Virus record (IMG/VR): IMGVR_UViG_3300029543_000197
Coordinates: 950 to 64,949 of that record
DNA: 64,000 nt
DNA from: a virus
Strand: one strand, 5' to 3'
The first letter of the stretch is position 1. Each line of letters opens with the position of its first letter. The position numbers and the translations under genes are program-made. This document shows, one piece after another, positions 3,220 to 43,384 of this stretch. The notes under the pieces are model-generated. The model saw only the letters and a program-made list of their open reading frames with translations, had not been told where the DNA came from and did no database searches.

Positions 3220-4005
3220 ATGAACGAATTACAAATTTTTAATTCAGAAGAGTTCGGTGATATCCGAACAGTAACTATTGATAACGAACCAATGTTCTGC
3301 TTATCAGATGTATGTAAAGCATTAGGACTCACTCAACCATCAAAAGTGAAAGAGAGACTGAATGAAAAGGGTGTGAGTAGTATTCCTACCCTTACAGCTG
3401 GCGGAGAACAGAAACTTCTCTATATTAATGAGTCTAATCTTTACAAGACTATTTTCCAAAGCAGAAAGGAATCTGCCGAAAGATTTACGGACTGGGTTAC
3501 ATCGGAGGTTCTTCCGGCAATCAGAAAGAATGGAAGTTATCAGCTTGCACCACAGGGCGAAGAGTTACTTGCACTTGCGGTGATTGAAGCGAAAAAGACT
3601 ATAGACTCTCTGAAAGACCAATGCAAGTTTCTTGGTGAACAGGCTGTTGAAAATCAGAAATTGATTTCCGAGCTACAGCCGAAAGCAAATTATGTAGACA
3701 AGATTCTTCAATCAAAGTCACTGGTAACTATCACGCAGATTGCAAAGGACTACGGACTTAGCGGAAGAAAAATGAATCAGATTCTAAAGGAATTAAAGAT
3801 TCAGTATAAAGTCGGTGGACAGTGGGTGCTGTATTCCAAACATCAGAATAATGGATATGTCCATAGCCGGACGATTGACATTACAAGAGCTGACGGCAGA
3901 CCGGATGTGACAATGCAGACTGAATGGACACAGAAAGGCAGACTCTTCTTATATGAAGAATTGAAGAAGCATGGCTATGTTCCGGTGATTGAACAGGTTG
4001 CGTAG
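3220..4005 (+). CDS. Phage antirepressor (Bro-N N-terminal domain, KilA-C/ANT C-terminal domain)
   Basis: MNELQIFNSEEFGDIRTVTIDNEPMFCLSDVCKALG is a Bro-N hallmark; the C-terminus is a KilAC-like DNA-binding region. Confidence 0.75.
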   Translation: MNELQIFNSEEFGDIRTVTIDNEPMFCLSDVCKALGLTQPSKVKERLNEKGVSSIPTLTAGGEQKLLYINESNLYKTIFQSRKESAERFTDWVTSEVLPAIRKNGSYQLAPQGEELLALAVIEAKKTIDSLKDQCKFLGEQAVENQKLISELQPKANYVDKILQSKSLVTITQIAKDYGLSGRKMNQILKELKIQYKVGGQWVLYSKHQNNGYVHSRTIDITRADGRPDVTMQTEWTQKGRLFLYEELKKHGYVPVIEQVA

Positions 4006-4428: not shown

Positions 4429-4647
4429 ATGGCAAAGGAAAAAATAACGATTACGCCTGATGAGTTTGTCAAAAAGTCCGCAGATGCGGCGGCGGATATG
4501 ATAACTAATAGCGAGTGTGGCATTGATTCAGCGGCGGGACAAGCTCTTATCGCTGTTTCGCAGGAACTTTTTGCAAGGACGCTCTGCAAATTGTTTGAAA
4601 TGGAGGAAGAAGATGAAACAGCCGAAGAAGTTGACAAGGCAGAATAA
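4429..4647 (+). CDS. Small acidic hypothetical protein
   Basis: 72 aa, preceded by a GGAG RBS. Confidence 0.35.
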   Translation: MAKEKITITPDEFVKKSADAAADMITNSECGIDSAAGQALIAVSQELFARTLCKLFEMEEEDETAEEVDKAE

Positions 4648-4798
4648 GGTCCTGCTGGAAAAGGTGGGTTTAAACCCGGAAGAATGGATGAACCTACTGG
4701 AAGATAATTTGTATCTACACATTGTTCAGAAACATTCGGGCGAGCGTGTAGTCAAGATTATAGATAAGAAGAAAGGGGATATAATCGGTGGAAATTAA
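4613..4798 (+). CDS. Small hypothetical protein
   Basis: ATG at 4613 preceded by GGAGGAAGAAG; overlaps the upstream gene. Confidence 0.3.
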   Translation: MKQPKKLTRQNKVLLEKVGLNPEEWMNLLEDNLYLHIVQKHSGERVVKIIDKKKGDIIGGN

Positions 4799-6812
4799 AA
4801 AGGTTAAGTTGCTGTCCATACATATTCAGAACTTTAAAGGATGCAAGGATCGCAATATTGAATTTGGTGAAAAGACAAGAATATTCGGTGCAAATGCCAC
4901 CGGAAAGACTACGCTATTTGATGCGTTCACATGGTTACTGTTCGGAAAGGATTCGCTGGGAAGTGCTGATTTCGATATCAGACCGCTTGATGCTGATGGA
5001 AAGATGATTGATAACATTGAGATTTCCGTCAAGGCAAGAATGTCCGTAGATGGCGAAGAGTACGAACTGAAAAAGACACAGAAGCAAAAATGGGTGAAGC
5101 GTCGAGGAACGGACACAACAGAGTTCCGGGGAAACGTTAATGAGTTTGAGATTAATGGTTATCCGAAGTCACAGAAGGAGTTTAAAGAGTTTATCGCAAA
5201 CATTATTGATGAAGATGTGTTTACTTTGGTAACGAATCCGTCAGCGTTCAATTCACTGGCATGGAAGAAACAACGTGATATTCTCATGAAATTTGTTGGA
5301 GATTTCACTGATGAACAGATCGCCGGAACATTCGGTGACAGATACGCAACGCTGATTCCTGAATTAAAGATTGCCAGTACAGATGACATTCTCAAGAAGT
5401 ACACCAAAGCAAAGAGCTTACTTAACAAAGACATGGTTGAGATTCCAGCAAGAATTGATGAGGTGTCTAAACAGCTTGTTATTGCAGATGTCGGAGCATT
5501 GGAAGTTGAAAAAGCTGCAAAAGAAGCGGCTTTACAGAAGGTGGAAGATGAGATTTCCGGTGGTAGCGGAAAACTGGAAGAGGTTAATTCCAAGCGTGAA
5601 GAGGTCATGAATCTCAAATTTCATCTGTCAGAAATTCAGAATGCGGAGAATCAGAAGTTGCTTTTGGAATCAACTGATATCCGAAATGACTTATCAAGAA
5701 CGCGGGATACATTGAATGATCTCAAGCGTGATGTATTGAATAAGGAAAGCGAAATCAGGGATGCTCATGTAAAGTATGAAGATCATGAGCGTGAAAAAAA
5801 TCGGCTTTTGGTTGAATGGAAGTCTGAAAAAGCAAAGGCATATCCGGCTCTTACTCCGTTGGAACCGCTTACGGACGGCTCGTTTATCTGTCCTACTTGC
5901 GGACAGGACTTGCCGGAAGAGGTAAAGCAGAAACGTATTGCTGATTACGAAGCTCGCAAGGCTGCATATGAAAGCAAGTACGAAAAAGATAAGGCAGAGT
6001 TTGAAGAAAACCGTGCTAAAAGGATTTCGCAGATTGAAGCTGATGGAAGGTCAGCTGCTAAATCGAGAGACAAATTTAAAACCTTGGAAGAATCTCTTAT
6101 CAAAGAAAAAGATGAGCTGACTACCAAGTTGGCAGATGCACAGAGGGAATACGAGATTGTTAAAAAGGCTGTAGACGGAATGCCAAAGGTTGCTGATGTT
6201 TCAGAAAATGCAGAGTATAAGGCAACTACAGAGAAAATCTCGGCACTTGAAAAAGAGATTGAAGAAATGAGCAAAGATACTTCTTCGATGGAGTTGAAAG
6301 CTAAGAGGGACATTTTAAAAGATGAAATTTCCGAGATTACTGTAAGGATTGCGGCAGCAGATAATACCAAGGTGAAAGAGCGTATTGCTGAACTGGAGGA
6401 AGGGCAGAAGGAAGTTGGACAGAAGATTGCAGAACAGGAACAGATGATTGACCTTGTGGAAGATTTTATTCGGGCGAAAATGAAAATGATTTCTGAAAAG
6501 ATCAACGGAATGTTTAAGGTGGTTTCATTCAAGCTGTTCGACAATCAGATCAACGGGGGGCTGAAAGAAACTTGTGAATGTACTGTAAATGGCGTTCCGC
6601 TTTCAAGCTTGAATAACGGGCATCGGATTGTTGCAGGATTGGATATTATTCAATCATTATCCAGTCTGTACGGTGTCAGTTGCCCTATTTTCGTGGATAA
6701 TGCGGAAAGCATCAACGACTTCAATGTGCCGGAAATGGATTCTCAGATGATTTGTTTGGCAGTAACCGATGATAAGGAATTAAAAGTAGAGAGCGAGGTT
6801 AAATATGATTAA
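4788..6812 (+). CDS. SMC/SbcC/Rad50-like AAA ATPase (phage recombination-associated)
   Basis: N-terminal Walker A (GANATGKTT), a long coiled-coil middle and a C-terminal Walker-B-like IFVDNAE. It sits upstream of a RecT-like gene. Confidence 0.65.
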   Translation: MEIKKVKLLSIHIQNFKGCKDRNIEFGEKTRIFGANATGKTTLFDAFTWLLFGKDSLGSADFDIRPLDADGKMIDNIEISVKARMSVDGEEYELKKTQKQKWVKRRGTDTTEFRGNVNEFEINGYPKSQKEFKEFIANIIDEDVFTLVTNPSAFNSLAWKKQRDILMKFVGDFTDEQIAGTFGDRYATLIPELKIASTDDILKKYTKAKSLLNKDMVEIPARIDEVSKQLVIADVGALEVEKAAKEAALQKVEDEISGGSGKLEEVNSKREEVMNLKFHLSEIQNAENQKLLLESTDIRNDLSRTRDTLNDLKRDVLNKESEIRDAHVKYEDHEREKNRLLVEWKSEKAKAYPALTPLEPLTDGSFICPTCGQDLPEEVKQKRIADYEARKAAYESKYEKDKAEFEENRAKRISQIEADGRSAAKSRDKFKTLEESLIKEKDELTTKLADAQREYEIVKKAVDGMPKVADVSENAEYKATTEKISALEKEIEEMSKDTSSMELKAKRDILKDEISEITVRIAAADNTKVKERIAELEEGQKEVGQKIAEQEQMIDLVEDFIRAKMKMISEKINGMFKVVSFKLFDNQINGGLKETCECTVNGVPLSSLNNGHRIVAGLDIIQSLSSLYGVSCPIFVDNAESINDFNVPEMDSQMICLAVTDDKELKVESEVKYD

Positions 6813-7098
6813 GGCAGAAAGAAACGGGAAAGGAACAGGATCAGTAGAAATCAGCGGTTTCCTGAGCGACACTATGAATGAATTTAAGGGGATTTGTCGT
6901 GGAGTAAGAAAAGTGTTTGTAGATAAGTTCGGAGAGGATGCGGGAGAGAAAGTGTTTAACATTCTTGCAAGCGGAAAGCCTGATGATGAAATCGCAAGCG
7001 AGATAAATGAAGTTCTCAAGGATGTTTTTATGGAAAAAGAAAAGAGAATGGATGCTTCTGATGCGATAGGGGCGTTATTGAGACACGTGTTTGAATGA
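6805..7098 (+). CDS. Hypothetical protein
   Basis: 97-aa ORF, translationally coupled to its neighbours. Confidence 0.4.
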   Translation: MIKAERNGKGTGSVEISGFLSDTMNEFKGICRGVRKVFVDKFGEDAGEKVFNILASGKPDDEIASEINEVLKDVFMEKEKRMDASDAIGALLRHVFE

Positions 7099-7322
7099 AA
7101 GGAGTAGGACTAATGTTATATATCAAAGCCAGATATATGAAAGATGGCGTTCAGCATGGGCGTGAATACACGTTCGGTTCAGATGTGATCGTGAAGCCGG
7201 GAGAAGTAGTTTCTATTGGAACTGCGAAAGCTGTAGTAACTGCGGTTGATGTTCCAGAGACGGAAATTCTTCCTTTCCGGGAGAAGCTGAAAAAGATTGA
7301 TGGGAAAGTGGAGGAAGAGTAA
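7095..7322 (+). CDS. Hypothetical protein
   Basis: 75-aa ORF. Confidence 0.35.
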   Translation: MKGVGLMLYIKARYMKDGVQHGREYTFGSDVIVKPGEVVSIGTAKAVVTAVDVPETEILPFREKLKKIDGKVEEE

Positions 7323-8380
7323 TGGCAGAGAAGAATGAAGTTGCTCAGAAGCAGGAATTTACAACTGGTTTGAGTCAGTGGACAAATACCATAACTGGTC
7401 TTGTCTCAAGGGATTTTGAGCAGAATGGTGTTAAGTATGATGAATATTCTAAGAAGTGTGCTATGAACGCAATGTCTGCAATATTCCAGTTGGTACAGAA
7501 CACCGACAAGGCAGATATGAAAAGCCTCAACACCTCTAATCTTAGAGAAGTTGTGGCACAGTGTGCAAGCCTTAAGCTGAATGCTAGTTCAATGCCAAGA
7601 GAAGTGTATTTTCAGCTTCGCAGTAAGCAGATCAATGGTCAGTGGATTAAGCTTGTCGAAATCGGTATTGAGGGTGACGGGAACGATGCATTATTAAGAA
7701 ATTTCGGCGTGAATGTCGATGCTGTCTATCCATCTTGGTTGGTAAAAGAAGGTGATGATTTTATATATCCAAAGTATAAAGGGTTGGAGATCACACCGCC
7801 TGAATGGAATCCAAAAGGACTTTCTGAAAAAACCGTTCGTGTTGTAACACCGATTAAGTTAAAAGACGGAACTATTGAGTACAGAATAGCTGAAAGAGAA
7901 GCGGTTAAGAATAATTTACTGGCACATATATCTAACAATATGATGAACGAAACATTCGGATTTGTAACCGGAAAGAACTCTAAGGGGAAAGACCGGACGA
8001 GACACGATGCTACAGCGGAAGAGAAAGCGAAAATATCTGCAAAAAAAGAGGAAATCTTGTCAGCCGTTCGTAAATGTGAAACACTGGAAGACATTTTGAA
8101 TAGTGAGGTTGCAAGACCGTTTATTAGTTCGGCATGGCTTAATACACCCGAAGCAATGATTGTTCGAAAGATGCGGAACAATGCTATCAAGAAATTCCCG
8201 AAAGACCTTAACAGTATGGCGTCAAGTTCTCTTTTACAGTTGGATGAAACGTATAAGGTAGCACAGGAAGAGATCAAAGAGAATGAAAATTCACAGGAAT
8301 TTGCAGTTGAAGACGAACCGGATGTAGTAGTTGAATCAGAAGCTGTTGAGGTGGAAACGCCGGAATTCGCAAAGGAGTAA
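7322..8380 (+). CDS. Putative RecT/Redbeta-like single-strand annealing protein
   Basis: 352 aa. It follows an SbcC-like ATPase and precedes SSB. Its profile is RecT-like, with an acidic C-terminal tail (EDEPDVVVESEAVEVETPEF) typical of SSB-interacting annealing proteins. Confidence 0.45.
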   Translation: MAEKNEVAQKQEFTTGLSQWTNTITGLVSRDFEQNGVKYDEYSKKCAMNAMSAIFQLVQNTDKADMKSLNTSNLREVVAQCASLKLNASSMPREVYFQLRSKQINGQWIKLVEIGIEGDGNDALLRNFGVNVDAVYPSWLVKEGDDFIYPKYKGLEITPPEWNPKGLSEKTVRVVTPIKLKDGTIEYRIAEREAVKNNLLAHISNNMMNETFGFVTGKNSKGKDRTRHDATAEEKAKISAKKEEILSAVRKCETLEDILNSEVARPFISSAWLNTPEAMIVRKMRNNAIKKFPKDLNSMASSSLLQLDETYKVAQEEIKENENSQEFAVEDEPDVVVESEAVEVETPEFAKE

Positions 8381-28368: not shown

Positions 28369-29019
28369 TTGACGAAGAAGAATGGTAGGTGTCTATTTTT
28401 AATGAAGAATAGGACAAAAAGAGCTTGCATTGACTGTGGTAAAGCTTTCTATGGCGATCTCGATAAATTGTACTGTGACGAATGTGCAAAAAAAAGAAAG
28501 TCTGACGTAATGAGAATCAGGACGTGCAAGATGTGTGGAGCCGAGTTTAGTGGTGGACCAAGGGCGTTTTACTGCCCGAACTGTAGGGTCATAAGGAAAA
28601 GGGATGCCGAAAAGAGACACAGAGAGAAAGGAACTGCAAGACCGATCGGGAGTGTCGCAAAATGTGAATGGTGTGGTGTGGAATATGTAGTAAATTCCGG
28701 TCGTCAAAAATATTGCTCAGATGAATGCCAACGTGAGGCGGTATTGGAATGGCAGAGAGATCATAAGCAGAGGTATAATATAGAATCAGGTCAATATGAT
28801 AAAAAGATAGAGAAACGAAAGAATAGTCTTAAAATCTGTGTATACTGCGGAAAACAGTTTCATTCTGATGTTGCAACAAATCTTTGCAGTGATTATTGCA
28901 GGAGAAAGCAGAAACAAATTCACATGAGGGTTTCAGATGCAAAGCGTGGAGTAAAATCCAATATTGAGCAGTTGATGCAAGAAAGAAATGATTATAGGAA
29001 AAGTATAGCGGAGAATTAA
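28369..29019 (+). CDS. Protein with four tandem zinc-ribbon repeats
   Basis: Four repeats of the form C-x2-C-G-x(8-10)-YC-x2-C. Confidence 0.45.
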   Translation: MTKKNGRCLFLMKNRTKRACIDCGKAFYGDLDKLYCDECAKKRKSDVMRIRTCKMCGAEFSGGPRAFYCPNCRVIRKRDAEKRHREKGTARPIGSVAKCEWCGVEYVVNSGRQKYCSDECQREAVLEWQRDHKQRYNIESGQYDKKIEKRKNSLKICVYCGKQFHSDVATNLCSDYCRRKQKQIHMRVSDAKRGVKSNIEQLMQERNDYRKSIAEN

Positions 29020-29444
29020 AAAGCTCTGTCCAATGTGGCAATTTACTATTGCGTTCCAAAAGTCCGAAGGGTGGCGTTTTTAGGGCGTTTTTAGGGCAAG
29101 AAAATCTCCCGGAAGAGTTTCCGCAAAAAAGATGTCGGTACTTTTTCAGGAGGTCTAAAATCTGGATGCTGAAAAATGAGTCAATTTCAGCGTCCTTTTT
29201 TGATGCGATTTTGCTGTGTGAATAATACTATAATAATGAGCTGTAATATCGCTGTGCGTTTGTATGTGGCTGTATCCGGCACTATTTACAGACGTTTGAT
29301 AATTTGGTTGTCTGCATAAGAAAACGCCTTAAACCGTCAAATACAAGCTTATAGATACAATTACCATACTACAAAAGTAATATAAATTCAATTCCATTTT
29401 TGCTTGATCCGTGATATTATACACTCGTGAAAGGAGGCTGCACC

Positions 29445-29876
29445 ATGGATAAAAAGCAAATCTGCATCAAATTCGCTCGGGAAATCTGCGATATATTGGA
29501 TATATCTGTACCTGCTATTAAATTCGTGTCTGCTGATCGGATGCAGACCAGCACGCAAATAGCGGCATTAACACCGGATGCGATACTAATCCGGGATGAT
29601 ATGACCGTATCGCCTGAGCTGTTCTTTGCGATCTCTCACGAGCTGCGGCATTCTTATCAGATCGCCAACGGTGCAGACCTGAAAGGATACCAAGCAAGCG
29701 ATAAAATTAGCGTCGAACAGTACAATCTGCAATCGCTGGAAGTAGATGCAAATGCATTTTCCGCTCTGGTTATGTCTGACTTCTTTGGAATTGTTCCACG
29801 TTTTCAGAATCTGCCGGAATCAGTCAAGGTCGCAATAAATGACCGCATGAAGCAGATACAAAAAGAATATAGGTAA
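29445..29876 (+). CDS. HExxH metallopeptidase-like protein (ImmA/IrrE-like)
   Basis: AAAGGAGG RBS before the ATG at 29445; SHELRH motif. GC is higher than in the surrounding phage. Confidence 0.45.
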   Translation: MDKKQICIKFAREICDILDISVPAIKFVSADRMQTSTQIAALTPDAILIRDDMTVSPELFFAISHELRHSYQIANGADLKGYQASDKISVEQYNLQSLEVDANAFSALVMSDFFGIVPRFQNLPESVKVAINDRMKQIQKEYR

Positions 29877-29884
29877 ACGCCAAT

Positions 29885-29922
29885 AAGCCAATGCCGGAAA
29901 AGTCGGTGTTGGCTTTATTTTT
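29885..29922. terminator. Bidirectional terminator hairpin
   Basis: AAGCCAATGCCGG...CGGTGTTGGCTT stem flanked by T-runs, between convergent genes. Confidence 0.5.
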
Positions 29923-30292
29923 ACAGGATATTAACCTCTGCCCGGTGCGGAATATGCTGCAACAACTCCGCCGGGCCCGTGATCTGAACATCTGATAGCG
30001 GTATATTCTCGCCATCTCTGACAAGTAAGCAGGTTAGTTGGATTGCTCCAACCTGCTTAACTGATCTTGTCAGTATGTGCTGCAAGTGGGATATGCTGCC
30101 GGATTGAGATGTGGCCGGGGCATCCTCCCAATATACGCAGTCGCATTCTGCATTTTTTATTGACTGGTACAGAATCAACCATTCTTTTTCTGCGATACTG
30201 TCCAGCCTGTCAACCTCTTCAAATGTTCTTTCCCCTTTTAATGCTTCAATAAGCATCTTCTGGGGTGCTTTTTCTATGATTTTCGTCCGCAT
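29921..30292 (-). CDS. Hypothetical protein (last gene of the leftward operon)
   Basis: Met at 30292 is preceded by AGGGAG; the track ORF extends to 30316. GC is about 50 percent. Confidence 0.4.
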   Translation of the reverse strand: MRTKIIEKAPQKMLIEALKGERTFEEVDRLDSIAEKEWLILYQSIKNAECDCVYWEDAPATSQSGSISHLQHILTRSVKQVGAIQLTCLLVRDGENIPLSDVQITGPAELLQHIPHRAEVNIL

Positions 30293-30332
30293 TTTATTCA
30301 CTCCCTTTTTTCGCATTGGAAAAAGCCGGAAA

Positions 30333-30524
30333 TTATCCGGCTAATTCCTTTTTAACCTTTTCAGCCACTCTTTCTATGTCTTCGAGTAGCTGTGCTACTT
30401 CACTGGCAGAATCAAGATCGCTTTTCTGCCAGTTATGCAGGTTTTCTTGTCTGTATCCAGCTGTCAACTGGATTAGCTGACATAACCGGCGTGCTTCTGT
30501 GTCGGTCAACGTAAACTTTTTCAT
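30333..30524 (-). CDS. Small hypothetical protein
   Basis: 63-aa ORF. Confidence 0.35.
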   Translation of the reverse strand: MKKFTLTDTEARRLCQLIQLTAGYRQENLHNWQKSDLDSASEVAQLLEDIERVAEKVKKELAG

Positions 30525-30539
30525 CTTCCCGCCGCCTTT

Positions 30540-30743
30540 CTAGTTTAATGCTTTGTCAATTCCTTCCGCTAAGTGTGGAAATGCTTCTTGCACTTCTTGC
30601 ATCGTGTCCGCTTCATAGTCTCCGATGCACTTATTATCCCTGTAGAGATTGCCACAGTACACGCAATCTAAATCACTAAAACTCCAATCTATTCCGGTTA
30701 CTTCTTCCGGCTTGTGGCTGTACCACATGTCAATATTAATCAT
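30540..30743 (-). CDS. Small zinc-finger-like hypothetical protein
   Basis: CVYCGNLYRDNKC motif. Confidence 0.35.
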   Translation of the reverse strand: MINIDMWYSHKPEEVTGIDWSFSDLDCVYCGNLYRDNKCIGDYEADTMQEVQEAFPHLAEGIDKALN

Positions 30744-30822
30744 GCTCTTTCCCTTTCTAGTCTGCCATCATCAGAGCCGGGAGACTGTCCCGCGGCTGAC
30801 GGTCATTTCTGACCGTTTCGGC

Positions 30823-30984
30823 TTATATGTGCTCAATCCTAAATCTTTCTCTTGTGTCTTTCGGAAGAACAAGGTTAATAAAATCTTCCGCAAGAACTAA
30901 AGTGTCAAACTGTGCCACTTCCCTGTCAAATGGCTTTTCGAATTTGCTCGTGTAGCATGTTTCTACGACTTTCCACTTCATCAT
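30823..30984 (-). CDS. Small hypothetical protein (53 aa)
   Basis: GAGGG RBS; below the track cutoff. Confidence 0.3.
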   Translation of the reverse strand: MMKWKVVETCYTSKFEKPFDREVAQFDTLVLAEDFINLVLPKDTRERFRIEHI

Positions 30985-31073
30985 ATTAAATCCCTCACTT
31001 TCATAGAATTATGATTTTCTTTTTCTGTCCTCTGCATTTCTTAAAATCTCTTTCATATTGTCCGCTGTCCTTT

Positions 31074-31433
31074 CTATGCTGTAATTCTTTCGAATATTTC
31101 AATTGTTAATTCCGCAAGTGCACGCTTTTTGTTTGATGTGTACCCCTTTCTTTTGCTCTTAAGTGCTTTTCTTGCGGTTGCTAAGTTGTTAATTCCCCAA
31201 CTTGCCGCCGCCCTTAATTTCTCCACTTCCTCAGGAACTAACTTAATGGCTTTTAATGTGTACTGGTTGATTCTGTAATCATCTTTATCGCCCGGGTGTA
31301 AGTCCTGAGCTAGTGGGATATAATCATCATGCCCCATGTTTTCGCCTATGTTCCAAACGAAATAATTTGACGGGATTTTTTCAACAACCTCGAATTCGTG
31401 CTGATTGAATATGCTTTTGTCTTTTATTGTCAT
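31074..31433 (-). CDS. Hypothetical protein
   Basis: 119-aa ORF. Confidence 0.4.
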   Translation of the reverse strand: MTIKDKSIFNQHEFEVVEKIPSNYFVWNIGENMGHDDYIPLAQDLHPGDKDDYRINQYTLKAIKLVPEEVEKLRAAASWGINNLATARKALKSKRKGYTSNKKRALAELTIEIFERITA

Positions 31434-31529
31434 TTGCTTTTACCTTTGCCATATGTTACTATATGACTACCTTTCTTTTTTGATTGGTGCCGCCGTAGTC
31501 TTGTAGGATGTCCGGCGGCTTTTACTTTT

Positions 31530-31709
31530 TCACTCTTCCTCGTCCTCTACTTCATACTCTTTGTAGAGGGCAATCCATTCTGCGGGCGTCAACATATCCT
31601 CTCGGTCTTTCATCTTAAGCAGGTACGACAAGACGTACGCTGCTGAATATGGGATCATCGTCAATAGAGCTACCAAAATGATCATTATCTTTTTTATTGT
31701 CTTTTTCAT
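31530..31709 (-). CDS. Small secreted or membrane protein (59 aa), first gene of the leftward operon
   Basis: N-terminal MKKTIKKIMIILVALLTMIPYSAA (signal/TM-like) and an acidic C-terminus. Confidence 0.35.
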   Translation of the reverse strand: MKKTIKKIMIILVALLTMIPYSAAYVLSYLLKMKDREDMLTPAEWIALYKEYEVEDEEE

Positions 31710-31869
31710 TTTTGTTCCCTCCGTTTTTCTTTCTTTTTTTCTGCGACTGCCTCAGGTTTTTCAATTAATCAGATCGCTTGCTTATGTCCTCATTGTATTG
31801 AGTGGTTCAGGGCGTCCGGTTGTTTGTCCTGTGTGGCTGTTGCTGTATCTCGTTTACAGTTATTATAAT

Positions 31870-32000
31870 ACATGAAATATCATGTAATTGCAATATTATA
31901 AATACACTAAATATCATGTATTTGATAATTCAGTATTTGTGCATTTTACACTAAATAACATGTAATTGACTTTACAATAAAAACCATGTATAATTTTATT
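31870..32000. promoter_or_regulatory. Second genetic-switch operator array
   Basis: Four direct copies of about AAATA(T/A)CATGTA(A/T)TTG at about 31874, 31909, 31953 and 31980. The last overlaps a TATAAT -10 for the 32019 gene. An inverted copy lies at 32286-32299. Confidence 0.55.
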
Positions 32001-32018
32001 GAAAATAGGAGGTAGAAA

Positions 32019-32246
32019 ATGATTACTTATAAAATAGATGTATTAGAATCATTAAAAGAAGCCGGATATAATACGACTAGATTAAGAAAAGAAAAGCTTT
32101 TAAATGAAAGCGCTATACAATATCTAAGAAGTGGCAAGCCCGTTGGAGCTAAAGCATTAAATAATATTTGCATGTTGTTGGATATGCAGCCGGGAAATAT
32201 TATAAAATATGTAGAAGACGACAACACGATAAAAGATGTAAAATAA
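32019..32246 (+). CDS. Small HTH DNA-binding regulator (Cro/CI-like)
   Basis: AGGAGG RBS; HTH region LLNESAIQYLRSGKPVGAKALNNICMLL; flanked by operator repeats. Confidence 0.55.
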   Translation: MITYKIDVLESLKEAGYNTTRLRKEKLLNESAIQYLRSGKPVGAKALNNICMLLDMQPGNIIKYVEDDNTIKDVK

Positions 32247-32281
32247 AATAATATTTACATTATAAATAATGTATTTTAATA

Positions 32282-32340
32282 TTGACAATTACATGATATA
32301 TAATGTATAATAATGCTTGTAAGGAACAAATCTTACAAGT
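32282..32340 (+). promoter_or_regulatory. Promoter/operator plus perfect 8-bp hairpin downstream of the HTH gene
   Basis: TTGACA...TATAAT with an embedded inverted operator copy (CAATTACATGATAT), then CTTGTAAGgaacaaatCTTACAAG. Confidence 0.4.
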
Positions 32341-32379
32341 TACCGAGGCAAGCGGAGAAAGGAGAAAAACGTGGAAGAT

Positions 32380-32526
32380 ATGAGCGTATTCAAAAGTTAT
32401 TTAAGAAGACTTCTACAGGATTTAAAAGACTTGAAAGAAGCACTGAAAAACAAAGAATATGATAAGGCTGAAAAGATGGTTGATCGCCTTATTGATGATA
32501 CTCAAAGCGGTATCGAAGACAACTAA
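32380..32526 (+). CDS. Small hypothetical protein (48 aa)
   Basis: AAAGGAGAAAAAC RBS; an alternative GTG start lies at 32371. Confidence 0.3.
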   Translation: MSVFKSYLRRLLQDLKDLKEALKNKEYDKAEKMVDRLIDDTQSGIEDN

Positions 32527-32646
32527 AAAAGAGCCGTAACAAACGACTCAGGAACACAAGAGAGGGCGGAACTTGCCACCGCTCTCAAGTAATTAGATTA
32601 TAGCGGATTGGATAAAATAAATCAATTACAAGAAAGGAAAATAGAT

Positions 32647-32835
32647 ATGAAAAAATATGAATTTACCGGAACGAACGAGCTTACAAGAAAAGCTTTTGAA
32701 GTATACAGCGATAGTTCTTTTACATTCTGGAAAGATGGCGACAACTTTTATTATTCAGACAATCCGAACAGCGAAAAAGTAGAGCTTGGATCACTGGAAG
32801 ATGTAAACGAATTTCTTGAACGGTTTGCAGAGTAG
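32647..32835 (+). CDS. Small hypothetical protein
   Basis: ATG at 32647; the track ORF runs from 32608. Confidence 0.35.
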   Translation: MKKYEFTGTNELTRKAFEVYSDSSFTFWKDGDNFYYSDNPNSEKVELGSLEDVNEFLERFAE

Positions 32836-32849
32836 AGGAGGACGACAGG

Positions 32850-33140
32850 GTGAAGATAAAAGGAATTGGAACCATAGCAAAAAACAAGGCTATGGAGATA
32901 TTGACCGCAGAGGGCAGAAAAGCCGTTAGAAGCGGAGATATAACCACGGAAGAGCTGGCAGAAATGTACAAGTTGCAAAAGGTCAAAGAGGCTTGTGCAA
33001 TCGGTACTTGTACCGACAACTTCAACAATTCTTATAAGTGGGTGCCGGATGAACTAAAAGAAAATCTAACACCGGACCAGCTCGGACGGCTCACAGAATC
33101 GTTTTACGAATGTTATAGAGCTGGAAAAAATGATGTGTAA
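32850..33140 (+). CDS. Hypothetical protein
   Basis: AGGAGG RBS; 96 aa. Confidence 0.4.
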   Translation: MKIKGIGTIAKNKAMEILTAEGRKAVRSGDITTEELAEMYKLQKVKEACAIGTCTDNFNNSYKWVPDELKENLTPDQLGRLTESFYECYRAGKNDV

Positions 33141-33143
33141 ACG

Positions 33144-33174
33144 AATAAGAGCGGGGTTTTGCCCCGCTCTTATT
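33144..33174 (+). terminator. Rho-independent terminator (perfect 13-bp stem)
   Basis: AATAAGAGCGGGGttttgCCCCGCTCTTATT. Confidence 0.6.
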
Positions 33175-33379
33175 CTCACGTTAAAATATTCAATCCGTGT
33201 GACACCGACATCATTTTGAATGCCATTATTTCAATCCTTGCCCGGCGGAATTGCTGCCGGAACCGCATCGGAAAGCGTCCATTCCGTGCGACAGCATTAT
33301 AATATCATAGCTAATCTGATTAGTCAAGATATGCAGCTCTTTGGGGCTGTCTTTTTTGCACTTCCAGAGAGTGAAATAT

Positions 33380-34841: not shown

Positions 34842-35162
34842 ATGACAACAGTAAATATTCTTGGAACTGAATACAAGGTTTATCGGGAGCCGTTTAAGGA
34901 CAAAGATGTTGATGGTTACTGTGATTATACGTCAAAAGAAATTAAAATCAGGGATGATAACGTCAATGAGGTTGGTGATTTCGATGGGTTGATGAGAAAG
35001 CAGTTGCGACACGAAATCATTCACGCTTTCCTCGCTGAAAGTGGTTTGCAAGCCAATTATGAGCATTACAGACAATTTGGACATGACGAAACTATTGTTG
35101 ACTGGTTCGCTATTCAGTTCCCGAAGATGATTAAAGCGTTTGAGAGCGTGAATGCGATTTGA
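34842..35162 (+). CDS. HExxH metallopeptidase-like protein
   Basis: LRHEIIHAFL motif. Confidence 0.4.
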   Translation: MTTVNILGTEYKVYREPFKDKDVDGYCDYTSKEIKIRDDNVNEVGDFDGLMRKQLRHEIIHAFLAESGLQANYEHYRQFGHDETIVDWFAIQFPKMIKAFESVNAI

Positions 35163-36806: not shown

Positions 36807-36890
36807 TGGTGGATATGCAAGTGGTTAAAGCAGGCTGACTGTAAATCAGATGTCCGTGTGACTTCGTGGGTTCAAATCCTACTCCACCAA
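36807..36890 (+). tRNA. tRNA-Tyr (anticodon GTA), long variable arm
   Basis: Manual fold: a 7/7-bp acceptor stem, GACTGTAAATC anticodon loop and a GGGTTCAAATCC T-arm. Confidence 0.6.
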
Positions 36891-36992
36891 TTCCAGTGAG
36901 TGGCGACACTGGGACCTCCTTTTTATATGTATGAGTGACTGGTTTCTTTGCGGTGCGGAGAGTAATTGAATGGCGATTCACCCAGTCAGTAT

Positions 36993-37075
36993 GCCGTATT
37001 CCCATAATGGTATTGGAGATGCTTGCTAAGCATTCAGTCGGAAACGACTTGGAGGTTCGACTCCTCCATACGGCG
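36993..37075 (+). tRNA. tRNA-Ser (anticodon GCT), long variable arm
   Basis: Perfect 7-bp acceptor (GCCGTAT/ATACGGC), 3-bp D stem, loop TTGCTAA, variable-arm hairpin AGTCGgaaaCGACT and T-arm GGAGGttcgactCCTCC. Confidence 0.65.
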
Positions 37076-37076
37076 T

Positions 37077-37148
37077 TGCGGATTAGTGGAACGGTTACCA
37101 CGCAAGGCTCATAACCTTGAAAAGTCGGTTCAATTCCGACATTCGCCA
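37077..37148 (+). tRNA. tRNA-Met (anticodon CAT; elongator Met or lysidine-Ile2 type)
   Basis: Anticodon stem CAAGG/CCTTG with loop CTCATAA, D-stem GTGG/CCAC and T-arm GTCGGttcaattCCGAC. The 1-72 pair is mismatched. Confidence 0.5.
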
Positions 37149-37230
37149 TTTCTGAGTTTTGCTGTTCTCAGAATGCTTTATGTCATGACATGACGCTCCT
37201 TGTACTATCGCATTTTAAAAACAGCAATAT

Positions 37231-37304
37231 GCTATCATGGCTCAATCGGATAGAGCGGTTGACTATGGATCAACAGATTCCCGGTTCGACTCCGGGCGGT
37301 AGCT
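37231..37304 (+). tRNA. tRNA with atypical anticodon ATG (A34); His-codon reader or pseudo-tRNA
   Basis: Canonical cloverleaf: D stem GCTC/GAGC, anticodon stem GTTGA/TCAAC, loop CTATGGA, T-arm CCCGGttcgactCCGGG. The acceptor has one A-C mismatch. Confidence 0.45.
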
Positions 37305-37361
37305 CTCTCCGGGGAGTGGAATTTCCTGGAGACCTTTTTCTTTCATAGTGATTTTCCAGTG

Positions 37362-37433
37362 TACTGTATAGTTTAAGCGGCAGAATGATTAGCGAATGGC
37401 TAATAGGTTTCGGTTCGATTCCGAATGCAGTAA
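37362..37433 (+). tRNA. tRNA-like gene with a non-canonical anticodon loop (CGAATGG); possible pseudo-tRNA
   Basis: Good acceptor (TACTGTA/TGCAGTA) and T-arm (TTCGGttcgattCCGAA), but the D-arm is irregular and position 33 is G. Confidence 0.3.
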
Positions 37434-37439
37434 TTTTAT

Positions 37440-37510
37440 CGGGTAATAGCTCAACGGTAGAGCAACGGACTTTGACTCCGTATGTTGGGGTTCGATTCCC
37501 CATTACCTTG
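37440..37510 (+). tRNA. tRNA-Gln (anticodon TTG)
   Basis: D stem GCTC/GAGC, anticodon stem ACGGA/TCCGT, loop CTTTGAC, T-arm TGGGGttcgattCCCCA. Confidence 0.6.
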
Positions 37511-37511
37511 T

Positions 37512-37583
37512 AGGTCGATAGTTTAATTGGCAAAACAGCGGTCTCCAAAACCGCAATTATAGGTTCGATCCCTATTCGGTCTG
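37512..37583 (+). tRNA. tRNA-Trp (anticodon CCA)
   Basis: Acceptor AGGTCGA/TCGGTCT (two G-U pairs), D stem GTTT/AAAC, anticodon stem GCGGT/ACCGC, loop CTCCAAA, T-arm ATAGGttcgatcCCTAT. Confidence 0.6.
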
Positions 37584-38249
37584 TTCAAACATGATTAACT
37601 CGGTGAAGATGGATTTTTCAGTCCAGCCGAGATGCAATGGTAATGAGATAGGTTTATTCGGGATACTGGATAAACTGATTCTTTCCGGCGTGAGTGATTG
37701 TGCTGGTGGAGACGGAAACCGTCAACAACGCCTTGCAGTGTATCATCATAGAGAAATTAAAAGCAGAATCCTTGTGGTCGGCGTAGAATAGACGCTTGCG
37801 GTGCAAGAATAATCCATTCAGTTTGTGGTGTGAGAGACTACGAATGGCGGTGGAAAATCTCACTAAGCCGATTTGCCTTGAATCCGAGAAATCGGAGTAT
37901 AACACAAGAAATTCGTTAAAGTAGCGGTATGGCATTGTTTGAAGAAGATATAAAATCTCCAACGTAGAGATGTTAAGCAAAACATAATCTGAAAGAACCG
38001 TGAAATTTACTGGTACCAATCCAGTGTGTGCTTTGACAGTGGTAGGAAGCCTAGAGTCGCTCTCGAAAGCTCAGACCTATCATCACACTGGCAGAATATG
38101 GCTTCTACCTTGATGAATAAGGGGAAACCCTAATCATGTTTGAAGATGTGAAAGCCGGATTTTTAGCTGCGGAGTTATCCGGAAAAGTGGATTTTTACTA
38201 ATTCGTTATGCAACAATAGAACCGTAGCAGCGACAGGTGATTACTGGTC

Positions 38250-38332
38250 TGTCGGCTAATGACATGTAGCTCCAATGGCAGAGCGTCCGGCCGTTAACCG
38301 GATGGTTGCGGGTTCAAGTCCCGCCATGTCAG
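38250..38332 (+). tRNA. tRNA-Asn (anticodon GTT)
   Basis: Perfect acceptor TGACATG/CATGTCA, D stem GCTC/GAGC, anticodon stem TCCGG/CCGGA, loop CCGTTAA, T-arm GCGGGttcaagtCCCGC, followed by a T7 run. Confidence 0.55.
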
Positions 38333-38360: not shown

Positions 38361-38873
38361 ATGACATTTAAAGAAGCATTAAAAGCAATGAAACGTGGAG
38401 CAAAGGTGAGACTTCCTGGTTGGTTAGCTTATTATTGGTACTGGGATGAGGAAAAAGAGACGGTTATGACGCATAGTAAGCCGTTGCTCACTGGAGGCGA
38501 AGAAAATGAAACTGATATTAACGACGAGAGAGTTGGGAGAGTTTTTGATGATATGCTAAGAGAGGACTGGATGATTGCAAACGAAGAAAATTGTCCGATA
38601 GTCTGTGACAAAGCAGTATTTTCATTTGGTGACGCTATCACATATCTGAAAAAAGGGCGTAAAGTGGCACGTAGAGGTTGGAATGGTAAGAAGCAGTACA
38701 TTCAACTTGCTACTGGTATTTCTTATAAGACAGCAGATGGAGAAATTGTAAACTGCGAACATGATGCTATCGGAAACATGGCTATTTCATTTGTCGGAAC
38801 ATCAGGAGTGCAGATGGGATGGCTCGCAAGTCAGGCAGATATGCTTGCAGAAGACTGGATGTTTGCGGAGTAG
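38361..38873 (+). CDS. Tandem DUF2829-domain protein (Tad2-like; candidate anti-Thoeris sponge)
   Basis: The N-terminus MTFKEALKAMKRGAKVRLPGW and an internal FGDAITYLKKGRKVARRGWNGKKQYIQL both fit the DUF2829 signature (EAL..LK.GKKV.R.GW). Two copies sit in one 170-aa protein. Confidence 0.55.
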   Translation: MTFKEALKAMKRGAKVRLPGWLAYYWYWDEEKETVMTHSKPLLTGGEENETDINDERVGRVFDDMLREDWMIANEENCPIVCDKAVFSFGDAITYLKKGRKVARRGWNGKKQYIQLATGISYKTADGEIVNCEHDAIGNMAISFVGTSGVQMGWLASQADMLAEDWMFAE

Positions 38874-40615: not shown

Positions 40616-40657
40616 GAGCCGATATTTGTGAGAAATTGCAGATATTGGCTCTTTTTT
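40616..40657 (+). terminator. Rho-independent terminator upstream of terL
   Basis: GAGCCGATATTTG...CAGATATTGGCTC stem followed by TTTTTT. Confidence 0.55.
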
Positions 40658-40672
40658 GATTTAGGGAGAAAC

Positions 40673-43384
40673 ATGGAGTTTAGAGAGTATAAGAGATTAG
40701 CAAACGCATTGAAAATGCAGGATACAAATAAATATAGTACATGGGATAATATTATGCAGTTGTGCCTGAATATGTATGAGGATAATCATGACTATCTGCA
40801 ATACTGCCTGAAACTCTCAAAGGCGGTTAAGTTATCGGCTCAGAGATTACTGATAAAGAATCAGGATGTGCGGTTTGAAACCTTGTACTGGCAAGCTTTA
40901 AAGTTTGAGGCACCTCATTTGTTTGACAGCTATCTACTTTATCTTGAGCGAAAACGATTAGAACAGGATCGCTTCTACTCCCCGAAAAGGAAACAACTGA
41001 ATAAGCATGGATTGATTCAGGCAATGCAGGATCTTGAGGATGACAAACTTGACATCCTTTCAATTTCCATGCCACCGGGAACGCAGAAGTGTCAACCTTT
41101 ATATTCAAAGATATTGACGCCAAATGGATTTATACAAATGGGGGACGTCAAAGTAGGTACAAAGGTAATTTCTGGAACAGGAAAAGTAGCAACCGTACTT
41201 AGTATCTCACCAAGAAAGAAGCGAAAGATGTATGAGGTGACCTTCGATGATGGTTCCAAGACGAGATGTTCGGATAATCACTTATGGACGGTACAAACAA
41301 GAGATGATCGCAGACGAAAGAATAAAGATGGTAGCGAAAAATACAGGACAGTAGAGCTGTCTGAAATGCTTAAAAATTACAAGTTGGAGAATGGAAAGAG
41401 AAAAAATTATTCAATAGATTATGTTCCTAAGATCGATTGTTTTGAGAAAAAAGAATTTTCCCTGCACCCGTATGTTGTCGGTGCACTTATCGGAGATGGC
41501 GGATTAACTGGTGGTAGTGTTTTGCTAAGCTCTGTAGACAAAGAATTGTTGGATAGATTTGACAGTTTTTTACCTGATGGATATAGCTTGAAATATAAAG
41601 AGAGATGTACATATTTTGTTAGTGGACATGAAGGCGATAATGCAAAAGTTGGAAGCTTAGTCAGAAAAGAACTTGATAGGCTCGGATTATTCGGAAAGAA
41701 GAGTATAGATAAATTCATACCGAAAGATTATCTATATGGAAGTTATGAGCAGAGATTGTGGCTTTTGAGAGGTCTTATGGATACAGACGGATCTGCTTCA
41801 AAATATTATTGTACATACGCTACAATTTCAGAACATCTTGCAAATGATGTATGCGAACTTGTTCATTCTCTTGGAGGTTATGCAAGTAAAAACAAACGTA
41901 AAGCCGGATATAAGAAAAATGGTAAGTATAAACAATGCAATGATTATTTTGAGATTATCATACAATTTACCTCTGGCATGGATAGTATATTTTCTCTGAC
42001 AAGAAAAGCTGAAAAATATACTCCAAAAAGAAAAGTTATGAAGAGATTCATATCAGAGATAGAATACATCGGTGAAGAAGAGTGCCAATGCATTTACATT
42101 GATGATGAAAGTCATTTATATATTACAGATGATTATATCATTACGCATAACACCACTCTTGAAAAGTTTTTCTGTTCATGGATAATCGGAAGACACCCGG
42201 ATGATTTCAGTTTGTTTTTCTCACACAGTGGAGATATTACCAGAATGTTCTATGACGGGGTTATGGATATTACAACGAACTCAGATGAATATTGCTGGCA
42301 AGAGATTTTCCCAGACGTGAAATTTCATAGCACAAATGCCAAGAGAGAAACCATAAATTTCAATAAATACAAACCGTTCTCAAATATCCAGTGTACATCT
42401 GTTGGAAGTAAGAATGCCGGTAAAGTCCGTGCAAATAGATATCTGTATTGTGATGATTTGATTGGTGGTATCGAAGAAGCATTGAATAAAAATATTCTGG
42501 ACAAGCTTTGGAGAATCTACGGTACTGACGCCAAACAGAGAAAAATGGATGGCTGCAAAGAAATCCATATTGCTACGAGATGGTCCGTGCATGATGTCAT
42601 TGGGCGACTAATTGATATTTACGATGGAAATGACAGGGCAAGATTTATTGCCATACCGGACATAGACCCTATCACTGGGGAGTCGAATTTCGATTACAAG
42701 TACAATGGTTTCAGCGTTGAGTTTTTCCATGACCAGGAACTCACAATGGATGAGATCACCTACAAGTGTCTGTATAAGAATGAACCTATCGAACGTGAAG
42801 GACTCCTGTATACAGATGAAGAATTGCGGAGATTCATTACGTTGCCGGTTACTGAGCCTGACGCTGTATGGGGCATCTGCGATACGAAAAATAAAGGTAC
42901 TGACTATTTGTTTTTGCCTTGTATGTTGCAGTACGGAAACGACTTTTATCTTACAGACTGTGTTTGTGATGATAATTCCAATTACGGAATCCAGTATGAG
43001 CGGACATCGGATTTGATAGTTAATACTAAAATGCAACAGTGTCAGTTCGAGTCAAACAATGGTGGGGACCGTGTAGCACTTGAAGTAAGTAAGCTTGTTG
43101 AGCAAAAAGGCGGTGCCTGCAACATAACCACAAAGTACACGGAATCTAATAAGGAAACAAAGATTATTGTCAATGCAGATTGGGTAAAGAAGCACGTCCT
43201 CTTTAGGGATCGTGAACATTATAAACCGAAAGATGATTACGGAAGAATGATGGGATTTCTGTTGAGTTATTCAGTGCGTGGGAAGAATCCACACGATGAT
43301 GTGCCGGACGGATTGGCGAGTTTTGCATTATTTGTTACAACTGGTTTCGTTAGGGCGGCACAAATTATACAAAGTCCAATTTAA
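40673..43384 (+). CDS. terL: Terminase large subunit, interrupted by an in-frame intein
   Basis: ATG after TAGGGAGAAAC. The N-terminal ATPase region (...SMPPGTQK) is followed by a 354-aa insertion beginning with Cys. After the insertion the terminase sequence resumes (...TTLEKFFCSW...) through to a C-terminal nuclease-like domain. Confidence 0.8.
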   Translation: MEFREYKRLANALKMQDTNKYSTWDNIMQLCLNMYEDNHDYLQYCLKLSKAVKLSAQRLLIKNQDVRFETLYWQALKFEAPHLFDSYLLYLERKRLEQDRFYSPKRKQLNKHGLIQAMQDLEDDKLDILSISMPPGTQKCQPLYSKILTPNGFIQMGDVKVGTKVISGTGKVATVLSISPRKKRKMYEVTFDDGSKTRCSDNHLWTVQTRDDRRRKNKDGSEKYRTVELSEMLKNYKLENGKRKNYSIDYVPKIDCFEKKEFSLHPYVVGALIGDGGLTGGSVLLSSVDKELLDRFDSFLPDGYSLKYKERCTYFVSGHEGDNAKVGSLVRKELDRLGLFGKKSIDKFIPKDYLYGSYEQRLWLLRGLMDTDGSASKYYCTYATISEHLANDVCELVHSLGGYASKNKRKAGYKKNGKYKQCNDYFEIIIQFTSGMDSIFSLTRKAEKYTPKRKVMKRFISEIEYIGEEECQCIYIDDESHLYITDDYIITHNTTLEKFFCSWIIGRHPDDFSLFFSHSGDITRMFYDGVMDITTNSDEYCWQEIFPDVKFHSTNAKRETINFNKYKPFSNIQCTSVGSKNAGKVRANRYLYCDDLIGGIEEALNKNILDKLWRIYGTDAKQRKMDGCKEIHIATRWSVHDVIGRLIDIYDGNDRARFIAIPDIDPITGESNFDYKYNGFSVEFFHDQELTMDEITYKCLYKNEPIEREGLLYTDEELRRFITLPVTEPDAVWGICDTKNKGTDYLFLPCMLQYGNDFYLTDCVCDDNSNYGIQYERTSDLIVNTKMQQCQFESNNGGDRVALEVSKLVEQKGGACNITTKYTESNKETKIIVNADWVKKHVLFRDREHYKPKDDYGRMMGFLLSYSVRGKNPHDDVPDGLASFALFVTTGFVRAAQIIQSPI
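41090..42151 (+). other. Intein (354 aa) with LAGLIDADG homing-endonuclease domain inside TerL
   Basis: Starts with C (CQPLY...) and ends with HN, followed by T as the +1 residue. Two LAGLIDADG-type motifs: LHPYVVGALIGDGGL and RLWLLRGLMDTDGSA. The insertion is in the terminase P-loop region. Confidence 0.75.

Follow-up and report, generated by a model that had tools for sequence, protein, structure and literature searches.

What a block of small genes with a repressor-like gene of its own is doing between the early region and the packaging genes of a large phage is the question raised by the 64,000-nt stretch of viral DNA analysed here (IMG/VR record IMGVR_UViG_3300029543_000197, positions 950 to 64,949; hereafter the window, with positions counted from its first letter). 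The initial annotation took this block for a GC-shifted island nested inside the prophage and carrying a second immunity-type switch; it did not report a hammerhead ribozyme, a rightward arm under the same operators or a leader of ~125 nt. Here we report that the block, at 29.9-33.2 kb, is not a foreign island but a standard, swappable control unit that is a regular feature of a large gut phage family. The module combines an autoregulated accessory operon, similar to those controlled by Aca regulators, with a hammerhead of the prophage type, and is common and rule-defined in gut phages. As to its function, we lean towards a self-contained, self-repressed unit that would express accessory genes in a burst and then shut off, with the genes probably serving counter-defence or host takeover.

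Regulator, operators and promoters

At the centre of the unit is a 75-aa protein, HTH75, whose match to Pfam HTH_26 confirms the divergent helix-turn-helix (HTH) gene of the initial annotation (Table 1). At least 509 relatives of HTH75 are present in IMG/VR; matches of the protein to polyubiquitin were discarded as repeat-summing artefacts. Four direct 16-bp repeats and one inverted copy had been proposed around this gene, of which three direct copies and the inverted one were borne out with at most one mismatch, while the fourth “direct” copy (31979-94) has six mismatches and fits poorly. At this threshold the 16-mer occurs four times within 430 bp and nowhere else in the window. These repeats appear better described as six 18-bp dyads of the form TACA-N10-TGTA. 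Exactly six such dyads occur in the window, all within 31869-32307, against 0.88 expected by chance, and six were reached in no shuffle. The confinement of these sites to the block bears out the earlier claim of a second switch separate from the repressor region at 2.4-3.2 kb.

The dyads are arranged in pairs, with one filling the spacer between the -35 and -10 hexamers and one lying just upstream of the -35 hexamer at each of three promoters, P_L, P_HTH and P_R2, which are of the sigma-70 type and are the three best promoter matches of the region. A 67-nt inverted repeat surrounds the HTH gene, and its arms are P_L and P_R2, which are thus mirror copies of each other. The position of O4 in the spacer of P_HTH implies autorepression, and the layout as a whole has the anatomy expected of a repressor that would shut off its own gene and both neighbouring operons, which supports the proposal that the switch controls an operon of unknown small proteins. 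A further promoter-like site (TTGTCA-18-TATAAT, 11/12) lies at 32259-32288 on the minus strand, pointing leftward, antisense to the HTH gene and back to back with P_R2. The type C cassette shows no counterpart of it, and O6 makes more sense as the site paired with O_R on the upstream side, so we treat this promoter as unproven; it may be a by-product of AT-rich palindromic operators.

The six-gene leftward operon was confirmed as six open reading frames (ORFs) with Shine-Dalgarno (SD) sites, encoding proteins of 59, 119, 53, 67, 63 and 123 aa. Third-codon-position bias in the substitutions among relatives (orf119, orf67 and orf63), together with the protein families of orf119 and orf123, indicates that the leftward ORFs are real genes. 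GC and AT skew flip across 30-32 kb, as expected from the strand switch. On the left, the bidirectional terminator noted earlier was found at 29885-29915. Beyond it lies the convergent gene previously described as HExxH peptidase-like: the ORF stands, and for the family there is a weak DUF6782 match below the cut-off. This ORF, which is swapped out or absent in some relatives, is the left neighbour of the module, and we do not claim that it is controlled by the switch. On the right, P_R2 faces an arm of three small genes, with codon-position bias for the 62/75-aa and 96-aa genes, followed by a strong hairpin that probably ends the arm as a terminator; on this basis the unit spans terminator to terminator.

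Table 1. Features of the unit and of the main repressor region, in window coordinates
Feature	Position	Strand	Evidence or remark
HTH_3 repressor	2455-2826	minus	
Bro-N/ANT antirepressor gene of the phage	3220-4005		
143-aa HExxH ORF	29445..29876	+	AAGGAGG ribosome-binding site; DUF6782, 19.6 bits against a cut-off of 27, is the only match
Bidirectional intrinsic terminator, left module boundary	29885..29915	.	13-bp stem, 6 GC pairs, T run
orf123, last cargo gene	29921..30292	-	SD site; 26 homologue clusters, most of 123 aa
orf63, cargo	30333..30524	-	SD site; codon-position substitutions 8/10/31
orf67, cargo, first gene downstream of ribozyme	30540..30743	-	SD site; Cys motif
Type II hammerhead ribozyme	30756..30823	-	Rfam RF02276, 55.6 bits against a cut-off of 37, model positions 1-66 of 66
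orf53, cargo	30823..30984	-	SD site; called in all relatives with this cargo
orf119, most widespread cargo gene	31074..31433	-	Codon-position substitutions 18/15/48
GC-rich hairpin between orf59 and orf119	31489..31519	.	Fold z-score -5.6
orf59, first cargo gene	31530..31709	-	GGAGGG SD site; N-terminal hydrophobic helix
Conserved leader (5' UTR) of leftward transcript, ~125 nt	31729..31862	-	
P_L, predicted promoter of leftward operon, TTGCAA-17-TATTAT	31865..31893	-	Promoter scan 9/12
Putative operator O_L, TACATGAAATATCATGTA	31869..31886	.	Fills P_L spacer
Putative operator O2	31903..31920	.	9 bp upstream of P_L -35
Putative operator O3	31947..31964	.	Just upstream of P_HTH -35
P_HTH, predicted regulator gene promoter, TTGACT-17-TATAAT	31966..31994	+	Promoter scan 11/12
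Putative operator O4, TACAATAAAAACCATGTA	31973..31990	.	Fills P_HTH spacer
HTH75 regulator (75 aa)	32019..32246	+	Pfam HTH_26 (Cro/C1-type HTH), 31.3 bits against a cut-off of 22, residues 12-67
Putative operator O6	32256..32273	.	8 bp upstream of P_R2 -35
P_R2, predicted consensus promoter of rightward arm, TTGACA-18-TATAAT	32282..32311	+	Promoter scan 12/12
Putative operator O_R	32290..32307	.	In P_R2 spacer
Conserved stem-loop at 5' end of P_R2 transcript, CTTGTAAG...CTTACAAG	32315..32340	+	Fold
Rightward arm, three small genes (called 48, 62, 96 aa)	32371..33140	+	Content varies between relatives
Strong hairpin, right module boundary	33143..33175	+	-28.4 kcal/mol, fold z-score -7.5

A mosaic slot in related phages

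Related phages carry other small regulators at the position of HTH75, namely a 69-79-aa ribbon-helix-helix (RHH)-like protein, a 73-aa HTH protein or a 69-aa HTH protein in tandem, and each regulator type comes with a repeat of its own: ATTACATGATATAT with HTH75, TTAGGCACAAATA with the RHH protein and ACGATAATAGAC with the 73-aa HTH protein. The repeat found in the spacer of the otherwise conserved P_R2 matches the regulator type in all 26 loci compared, and each regulator's repeat is also present three to four times upstream of its own gene. The same design extends to distant HTH75 relatives (38-68% identity; three other phage records), in which the gene lies between inverted repeats of 30-39 nt whose arms each combine a -35-type hexamer (TTGACA or TTGATT) that faces outward with a palindromic operator, for example TACACT-N6-AGTGTA. 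Across 66 IMG/VR viral loci, 59% of the ACA-N10-TGT dyads fall in the 9% of the sequence that surrounds the HTH gene.

Regulator and cargo are exchanged separately. Identical HTH75 proteins adjoin three unrelated sets of leftward cargo genes, and the cargo of the window adjoins four different regulators among its relatives. In pairwise comparison, two relatives (L001 and L004) have only 31729-32383 in common with the window, at ~96% identity. Another (L006) is 97% identical in both flanks and carries different cargo between the terminator and the leader, with the breakpoint of the swap falling at the terminator at 29885-29915, while three more (L011, L013 and L015) keep cargo and flanks and have 31728-32297 replaced. 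The slot itself lies at a syntenic position in every relative examined, and none of those sampled lacks it. The “nested island” of the initial annotation therefore does not hold: cargo, regulator cassette and right arm are exchanged independently, and the block is a mosaic of such pieces and not a single inserted element. The same comparisons support the view that the cargo is accessory and variable, not core.

One relative, L020, has a third unit of the same design at 4600-7600, in which a 64-aa RHH protein, accompanied by ATAGGGCACATA repeats of its own, is followed by a promoter and a Bro-N/ANT antirepressor. This extra unit is an arrangement resembling immI of phage P22, inserted beside the slot.

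Hammerhead ribozyme, leader and other RNA elements

Between orf53 and orf67 the leftward transcript contains a type II hammerhead ribozyme, matched by Rfam over the full length of the model, whose 5' end overlaps the stop codon of orf53 and which is followed within ~10 nt by the SD sequence of orf67, AAAGGGAAAG. The catalytic core (GAAA / GUC / CUGAUGA) is intact and stem II is open; the molecule reads AGCC-GAAA-C, stem III, G-UC, the cut, A, stem I and CUGAUGA-UGGC, with the cut site predicted between C30798 and A30797. As described for type II, a pseudoknot is formed by AGUCU of loop I and AGACU 3' of stem II. Covariation among nine hammerheads from five phage lineages agrees with this structure: 96.7% of cells are paired (30-46% in slide controls), and of nine pairs with compensatory changes two belong to the pseudoknot.

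A covariance model built from these nine sequences was searched against 80 IMG/VR viral loci chosen only by the presence of an HTH75-like gene, yielding 46 matches in 38 of the 80 loci, and all 46 lie on the strand opposite to the HTH gene, on its upstream side. Each of the 29 distinct hammerhead sequences directly adjoins a stop codon on its 5' side and an SD sequence with ATG on its 3' side, and at least 15 different genes lie downstream. The hammerhead of Dulem virus 39, from lemur gut, is 92% identical to that of the window, and the flanking proteins are unrelated. The same virus (L042) has another type II hammerhead at 5104-5168 (+), in the rightward arm downstream of the HTH gene, besides its copy in the leftward operon. 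Six viral contigs (L054, L063, L076, L077, L092 and L093) have hammerhead copies with CCGAUGA for CUGAUGA, a change at core position U4, but their stems are preserved and so is the junction with the following gene; these may be slow or inactive variants.

Clustered type II hammerheads that flank variable prophage genes, including the anti-restriction gene ardA, and that cleave in vitro were described in 2011 (Perreault et al. 2011, PMC3088659). The ribozymes reported here resemble them in type, in the pairing of loop I with the 3' flank, in their position between small genes of one transcript and in having no constant neighbours, but differ in being tied to one regulator family and strand and in the fixed junction of stop codon, ribozyme, SD and ATG that precedes many different genes. 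To our knowledge neither this tie nor this junction has been described before, and we take both to be new.

Some relatives have a second, diverged hammerhead copy, and the pair flanks an extra 83-aa gene. At the junction in the window, the first copy contributes the 5' part and the second the 3' flank, which looks like the product expected of recombination between the two copies. This resemblance supports a role for the ribozyme in cassette exchange, and we tentatively suggest that regulator cassette, leader and hammerhead-SD junction form a natural plug-and-play platform for mini-gene cassettes, a proposal that we consider possible and less likely than not to survive in full. On the RNA level the ribozyme would act as an insulator that trims away the upstream RNA, so that each new gene would be translated from a standard 5' end; on the DNA level the conserved ribozyme sequence would be the site at which cassettes are gained or lost by recombination. 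An engineered counterpart is RiboJ (Lou et al. 2012), in which a ribozyme set immediately before a ribosome-binding site cleaves itself and, by removing variable upstream RNA, reportedly makes downstream expression independent of context. The position relative to the ribosome-binding site is the same; RiboJ is an engineered part, however, whereas a natural equivalent is suggested here by position and modularity. If the platform proposal is true, ~500 or more loci would represent an integron-like reservoir of early-acting, probably counter-defence, proteins. The module also offers a concrete and testable role for bacterial hammerheads, a class without an assigned function in prophages since 2011: they would insulate and separate exchangeable cistrons of a tightly regulated operon.

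Upstream of the cargo genes, the leader of the leftward transcript is nearly identical across loci that have different cargo and different regulators. It has no match in Rfam and a modest fold z-score of -1.9, and its 13 variants differ little from one another. An operator mimic in its 5' hairpin was ruled out, as this hairpin stays constant across regulator types. In L017, L019 and L020 the leader is kept even without a cargo gene after it and runs antisense into another HTH gene. The GC-rich hairpin between orf59 and orf119 is of a type also present in the leaders of L001, L029 and L030, where the stems vary yet remain complementary (GCCGCCG, GCCGATCGG, GCCGTTG, GCCGG), with an A run before and a conserved ACCAATCAAAA after. 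Read on the plus strand it is a hairpin followed by a T run, the pattern of an intrinsic terminator, and it may terminate antisense transcription, blocking read-through into the regulator cassette. The stem-loop at the 5' end of the P_R2 transcript is present with every regulator type.

Cargo, function and phage context

Searches of the six cargo proteins against Pfam, PHROGs, NCBIfam, PADLOC and PDB sequences gave no usable match, the marginal ones being a PHROG of unknown function (orf119), transmembrane-type Pfam entries (orf59) and Avs2 in PADLOC (orf63; E 0.0059, 12.1 bits). The AlphaFold2 model of orf123 (mean pLDDT 92) has no fold match in PDB. That of orf119 (mean pLDDT 84) has no significant PDB neighbour, and its C-terminal half looks HTH-like by eye. 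The orf119 family comprises 718 clusters and includes gp36 of Streptococcus phage MS1 (36% identical, E 1e-20), which comes second in an operon that diverges from the terminase and portal genes. A 68%-identical homologue occurs on six metagenomic contigs (L021-L026) in a non-phage mobile element, beside SSB, ParA, ParB_N, Uma2, DUF4258 and an AAA-ATPase-like gene, and no homologue was found in a plasmid collection. A bistable switch in which orf119 would be the partner repressor was considered and rejected, the same protein occurring with four different regulator/operator sets. A 69% identical variant of orf59, of 55 aa, is found in relatives; orf67 shares 55% identity with a homologue in L001, whose cargo set is different, and has no homologue in catalogued phages.

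Cargo from the wider family is similarly elusive. The divergent operons of the 80 loci gave 277 ORFs in 150 clusters, and almost all of the 114 cargo representatives scanned were without family matches. Besides resolvase/recombinase and HTH families, the recognisable domains were DarA_C in two representatives, a RadC-like JAB domain and LPD29 with a J-domain, which Iyer et al. 2017 are said to place in the “polyvalent protein” and anti-restriction repertoire. PADLOC returned regulator-type names (RmrA, HTH_VI, capH, control protein) and marginal matches to mad1 and ZorC (E 3e-4 to 7e-4, one member each), with no convincing defence effector among the 114.

We propose that HTH75, presumably as a dimer, binds the six TACA-N10-TGTA operators. 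In DNA entering a cell without HTH75, P_L, P_HTH and P_R2 would all fire; as the regulator builds up all three would be shut, and this negative feedback would give a pulse of small accessory proteins. The operators in the promoter spacers predict repression at steady state, i.e. in the lysogen, where HTH75 would hold the promoters at a low set level. Cleavage by the hammerhead would divide the leftward transcript between orf53 and orf67 into two RNAs. As general RNA biology suggests, the upstream RNA would end in the stem III hairpin, and the downstream RNA would begin with a 5'-OH and have its stem I hairpin just before the ribosome-binding site of orf67. We regard the cargo as a set of exchangeable small proteins, probably acting at the start of infection.

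The closest known systems are the operons under Aca regulators, which repress their own and adjacent anti-defence operons and in which an RHH protein can replace the HTH protein (PMC13551039); conserved 5' UTR motifs are also reported for them (PMC13551039; PMC12282945). Judged by anatomy, the unit would work like these acr-aca loci (Aca1-14), its regulator having matched only the generic HTH_26 family. Shared features are an HTH regulator of very small size whose place an RHH protein can take; dyad operators that lie within promoter elements or overlap them, including O3 and O4 at P_HTH (in sequence anatomy only), and the same sites at the promoters of neighbouring operons (O_L and O2 at P_L, O6 and O_R at P_R2); a conserved 5' UTR; and, by analogy, autorepression together with repression of adjacent operons of tiny, fast-evolving genes. 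The window differs in having six operators in three pairs and a ribozyme inside the operon, and no known acr or anti-defence gene accompanies the regulator in the window, the DarA_C, RadC and LPD29 domains being confined to the cargo of distant relatives.

Several points count against a self-repressed burst unit of this kind. The regulator is divergent from the cargo and is not the last gene of the cargo operon, as opposed to the co-operonic arrangement of canonical acr-aca loci, and the conserved leader has no explanation in the model. None of the window's cargo proteins matches a known anti-defence, defence or toxin family or a solved fold, so that the functional label of the cargo is drawn from context. 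The dyad pattern was defined post hoc from the same data, and binding, repression, start sites, timing and cleavage are all predicted from sequence. Finally, an orientation opposite to the lytic genes combined with an own promoter and terminator is the classic layout of morons expressed from a prophage.

That layout, together with promoters of host type, also underlies the main alternative, namely that the unit is a prophage-expressed moron or a secondary immunity region, with a lysogen-expressed operon for superinfection exclusion or lysogenic conversion and with the swappable regulator setting immunity specificity. We judge this alternative unlikely, though well worth keeping in view. In phage P22, immI (mnt / arc-ant) is an autonomous unit of repressor and operator that exists in addition to the main immunity region and apart from it, with divergent promoters and small dimeric repressors. 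The unit described here is likewise autonomous and second, with divergent promoters and small repressors that are RHH proteins in some relatives, and its regulator/operator alleles are swapped as in heteroimmune phages. The small membrane-type protein orf59 would fit superinfection exclusion or lysogenic conversion, a Faecalibacterium phage, Aster, has its HTH75 homologue in the integrase-proximal switch region, and the additional RHH unit of L020 places an antirepressor under just such control. The window module, however, has no Bro-N/ANT antirepressor in 29.9-33.2 kb, the phage's own ANT gene lying far to the left, and L020 is the only relative with one in such a unit; the cargo consists of unknown mini-proteins and the regulator is an HTH_26 protein. 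Spacer operators would keep the operon repressed in the very lysogen that is supposed to express it, and the orf119 homologue belongs to the leading operon of MS1, a phage that we take to be virulent. An earlier suggestion of a defence module also finds no credible PADLOC match among the window proteins, nor is there a convincing defence-family match among the related cargo. Of the marks of a moron, the unit shows its own promoters and terminators and cargo that differs in 97%-identical backgrounds, but no distinct base composition.

Quite improbable, in our assessment, is a temporal switch in which HTH75 would time middle genes downstream of P_R2 and the leftward operon would be incidental. 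The module does lie between the replication block and the block leading to the packaging genes, and P_R2 is a perfect consensus promoter facing the genes downstream; yet its transcript probably ends at the hairpin at 33143-33175 after three small genes that vary between relatives, and no further operators occur downstream. Least probable of all, and in our view barely tenable, is the nested foreign island, whether as the regulatory core of a satellite or parasitic element or as a module of the toxin-antitoxin type, as the initial annotation had suggested. The discrete boundaries at terminators and a local change in composition speak for it, but the change is not the one described. Operon GC had been given as 48-50%; per-gene values are 38.3-45.5%, and the operon as a whole (42.3%, window average 40.4%) is at the 78th percentile of equal-sized windows, while the whole noted block (39.5%) is at the 27th. 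The operon is ordinary in this respect, and a mildly GC-high stretch is confined to 29427-30800 (45.1%, 97.5th percentile); the true outlier is AT-rich, namely the regulator cassette at 31728-32311 (28.3% GC, 0.2 percentile). The per-gene and percentile values rule out a GC-shifted island. A search of the block for integrase, replication (including primase) and packaging genes and for flanking att-type repeats found none, contrary to a parasitic core, and the constant slot and the independent recombination of its pieces argue against any single insertion. Nor does a toxin-antitoxin module fit an HTH gene that is monocistronic and divergent, with no co-directional pair and no toxin family or domain matched.

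The rules that define the module (a small HTH or RHH regulator, paired spacer operators and a hammerhead before a ribosome-binding site) mark hundreds of gut-phage loci with fast-turnover mini-proteins expressed from host-type promoters. Such loci are where new counter-defence or host-takeover proteins of Clostridia-type phages could be sought, very few of which are known to us. The exchangeable regulator/operator sets may also be regarded as ready-made orthogonal repressor-promoter pairs.

The phage is a large temperate one of low-GC Gram-positive type. To the left of the block lie, in order, the HTH_3 repressor, the Bro-N/ANT antirepressor, RecT, a DnaB-type helicase, two DNA methylases, YopX and DUF1653, and to the right an SPFH protein, a tRNA array with a ROOL RNA, a Tad2-like protein, the presumed large terminase with a probable LAGLIDADG intein, portal and capsid. 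No close relative of the window was found among catalogued phages, the nearest being uncultured human faecal contigs (portal 41% identical) and a Clostridium innocuum phage. The same proteins are present on many human-gut metagenomic contigs, and genome contigs searched with orf119 and with the portal protein gave no matches; the host is likely a gut Bacillota species. Counter-defence genes of known type (Tad2, Tad4, Gad2, Acb2/Tad1 and Lar) abound in the surrounding phage family, with relatives carrying Tad4, Gad2, Acb2/Tad1-hairpin and Lar-type genes in the early region.

Some further observations concern the neighbourhood of the unit. To its left, a 216-aa protein (28369-29019, +) has many CxxC zinc-ribbon repeats and PHROG matches to HNH-endonuclease families, and to its right a second small HExxH protein (106 aa, motif HEIIH; 34842-35162, +) is without a family match. 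The 918-aa ORF at 40628-43384 (+) has LAGLIDADG homing-endonuclease domains, which would indicate an intein; a terminase domain was not detected in it, and we regard it as the large terminase because it immediately precedes portal. The Tad2-like (anti-Thoeris) domain (E 6e-26) is in a 170-aa protein at 38361-38873 (+). Just upstream of that gene, within an array of seven tRNA genes (36807-38332), lies a full-length ROOL RNA at 37575-38151 (+; Rfam RF03087, 387 bits), a prophage-associated RNA of unknown function that forms large homo-oligomeric RNA-only complexes (PMC12286853). The same layout of ROOL within a tRNA array is found in the relatives L001, L003, L004, L013 and L015.

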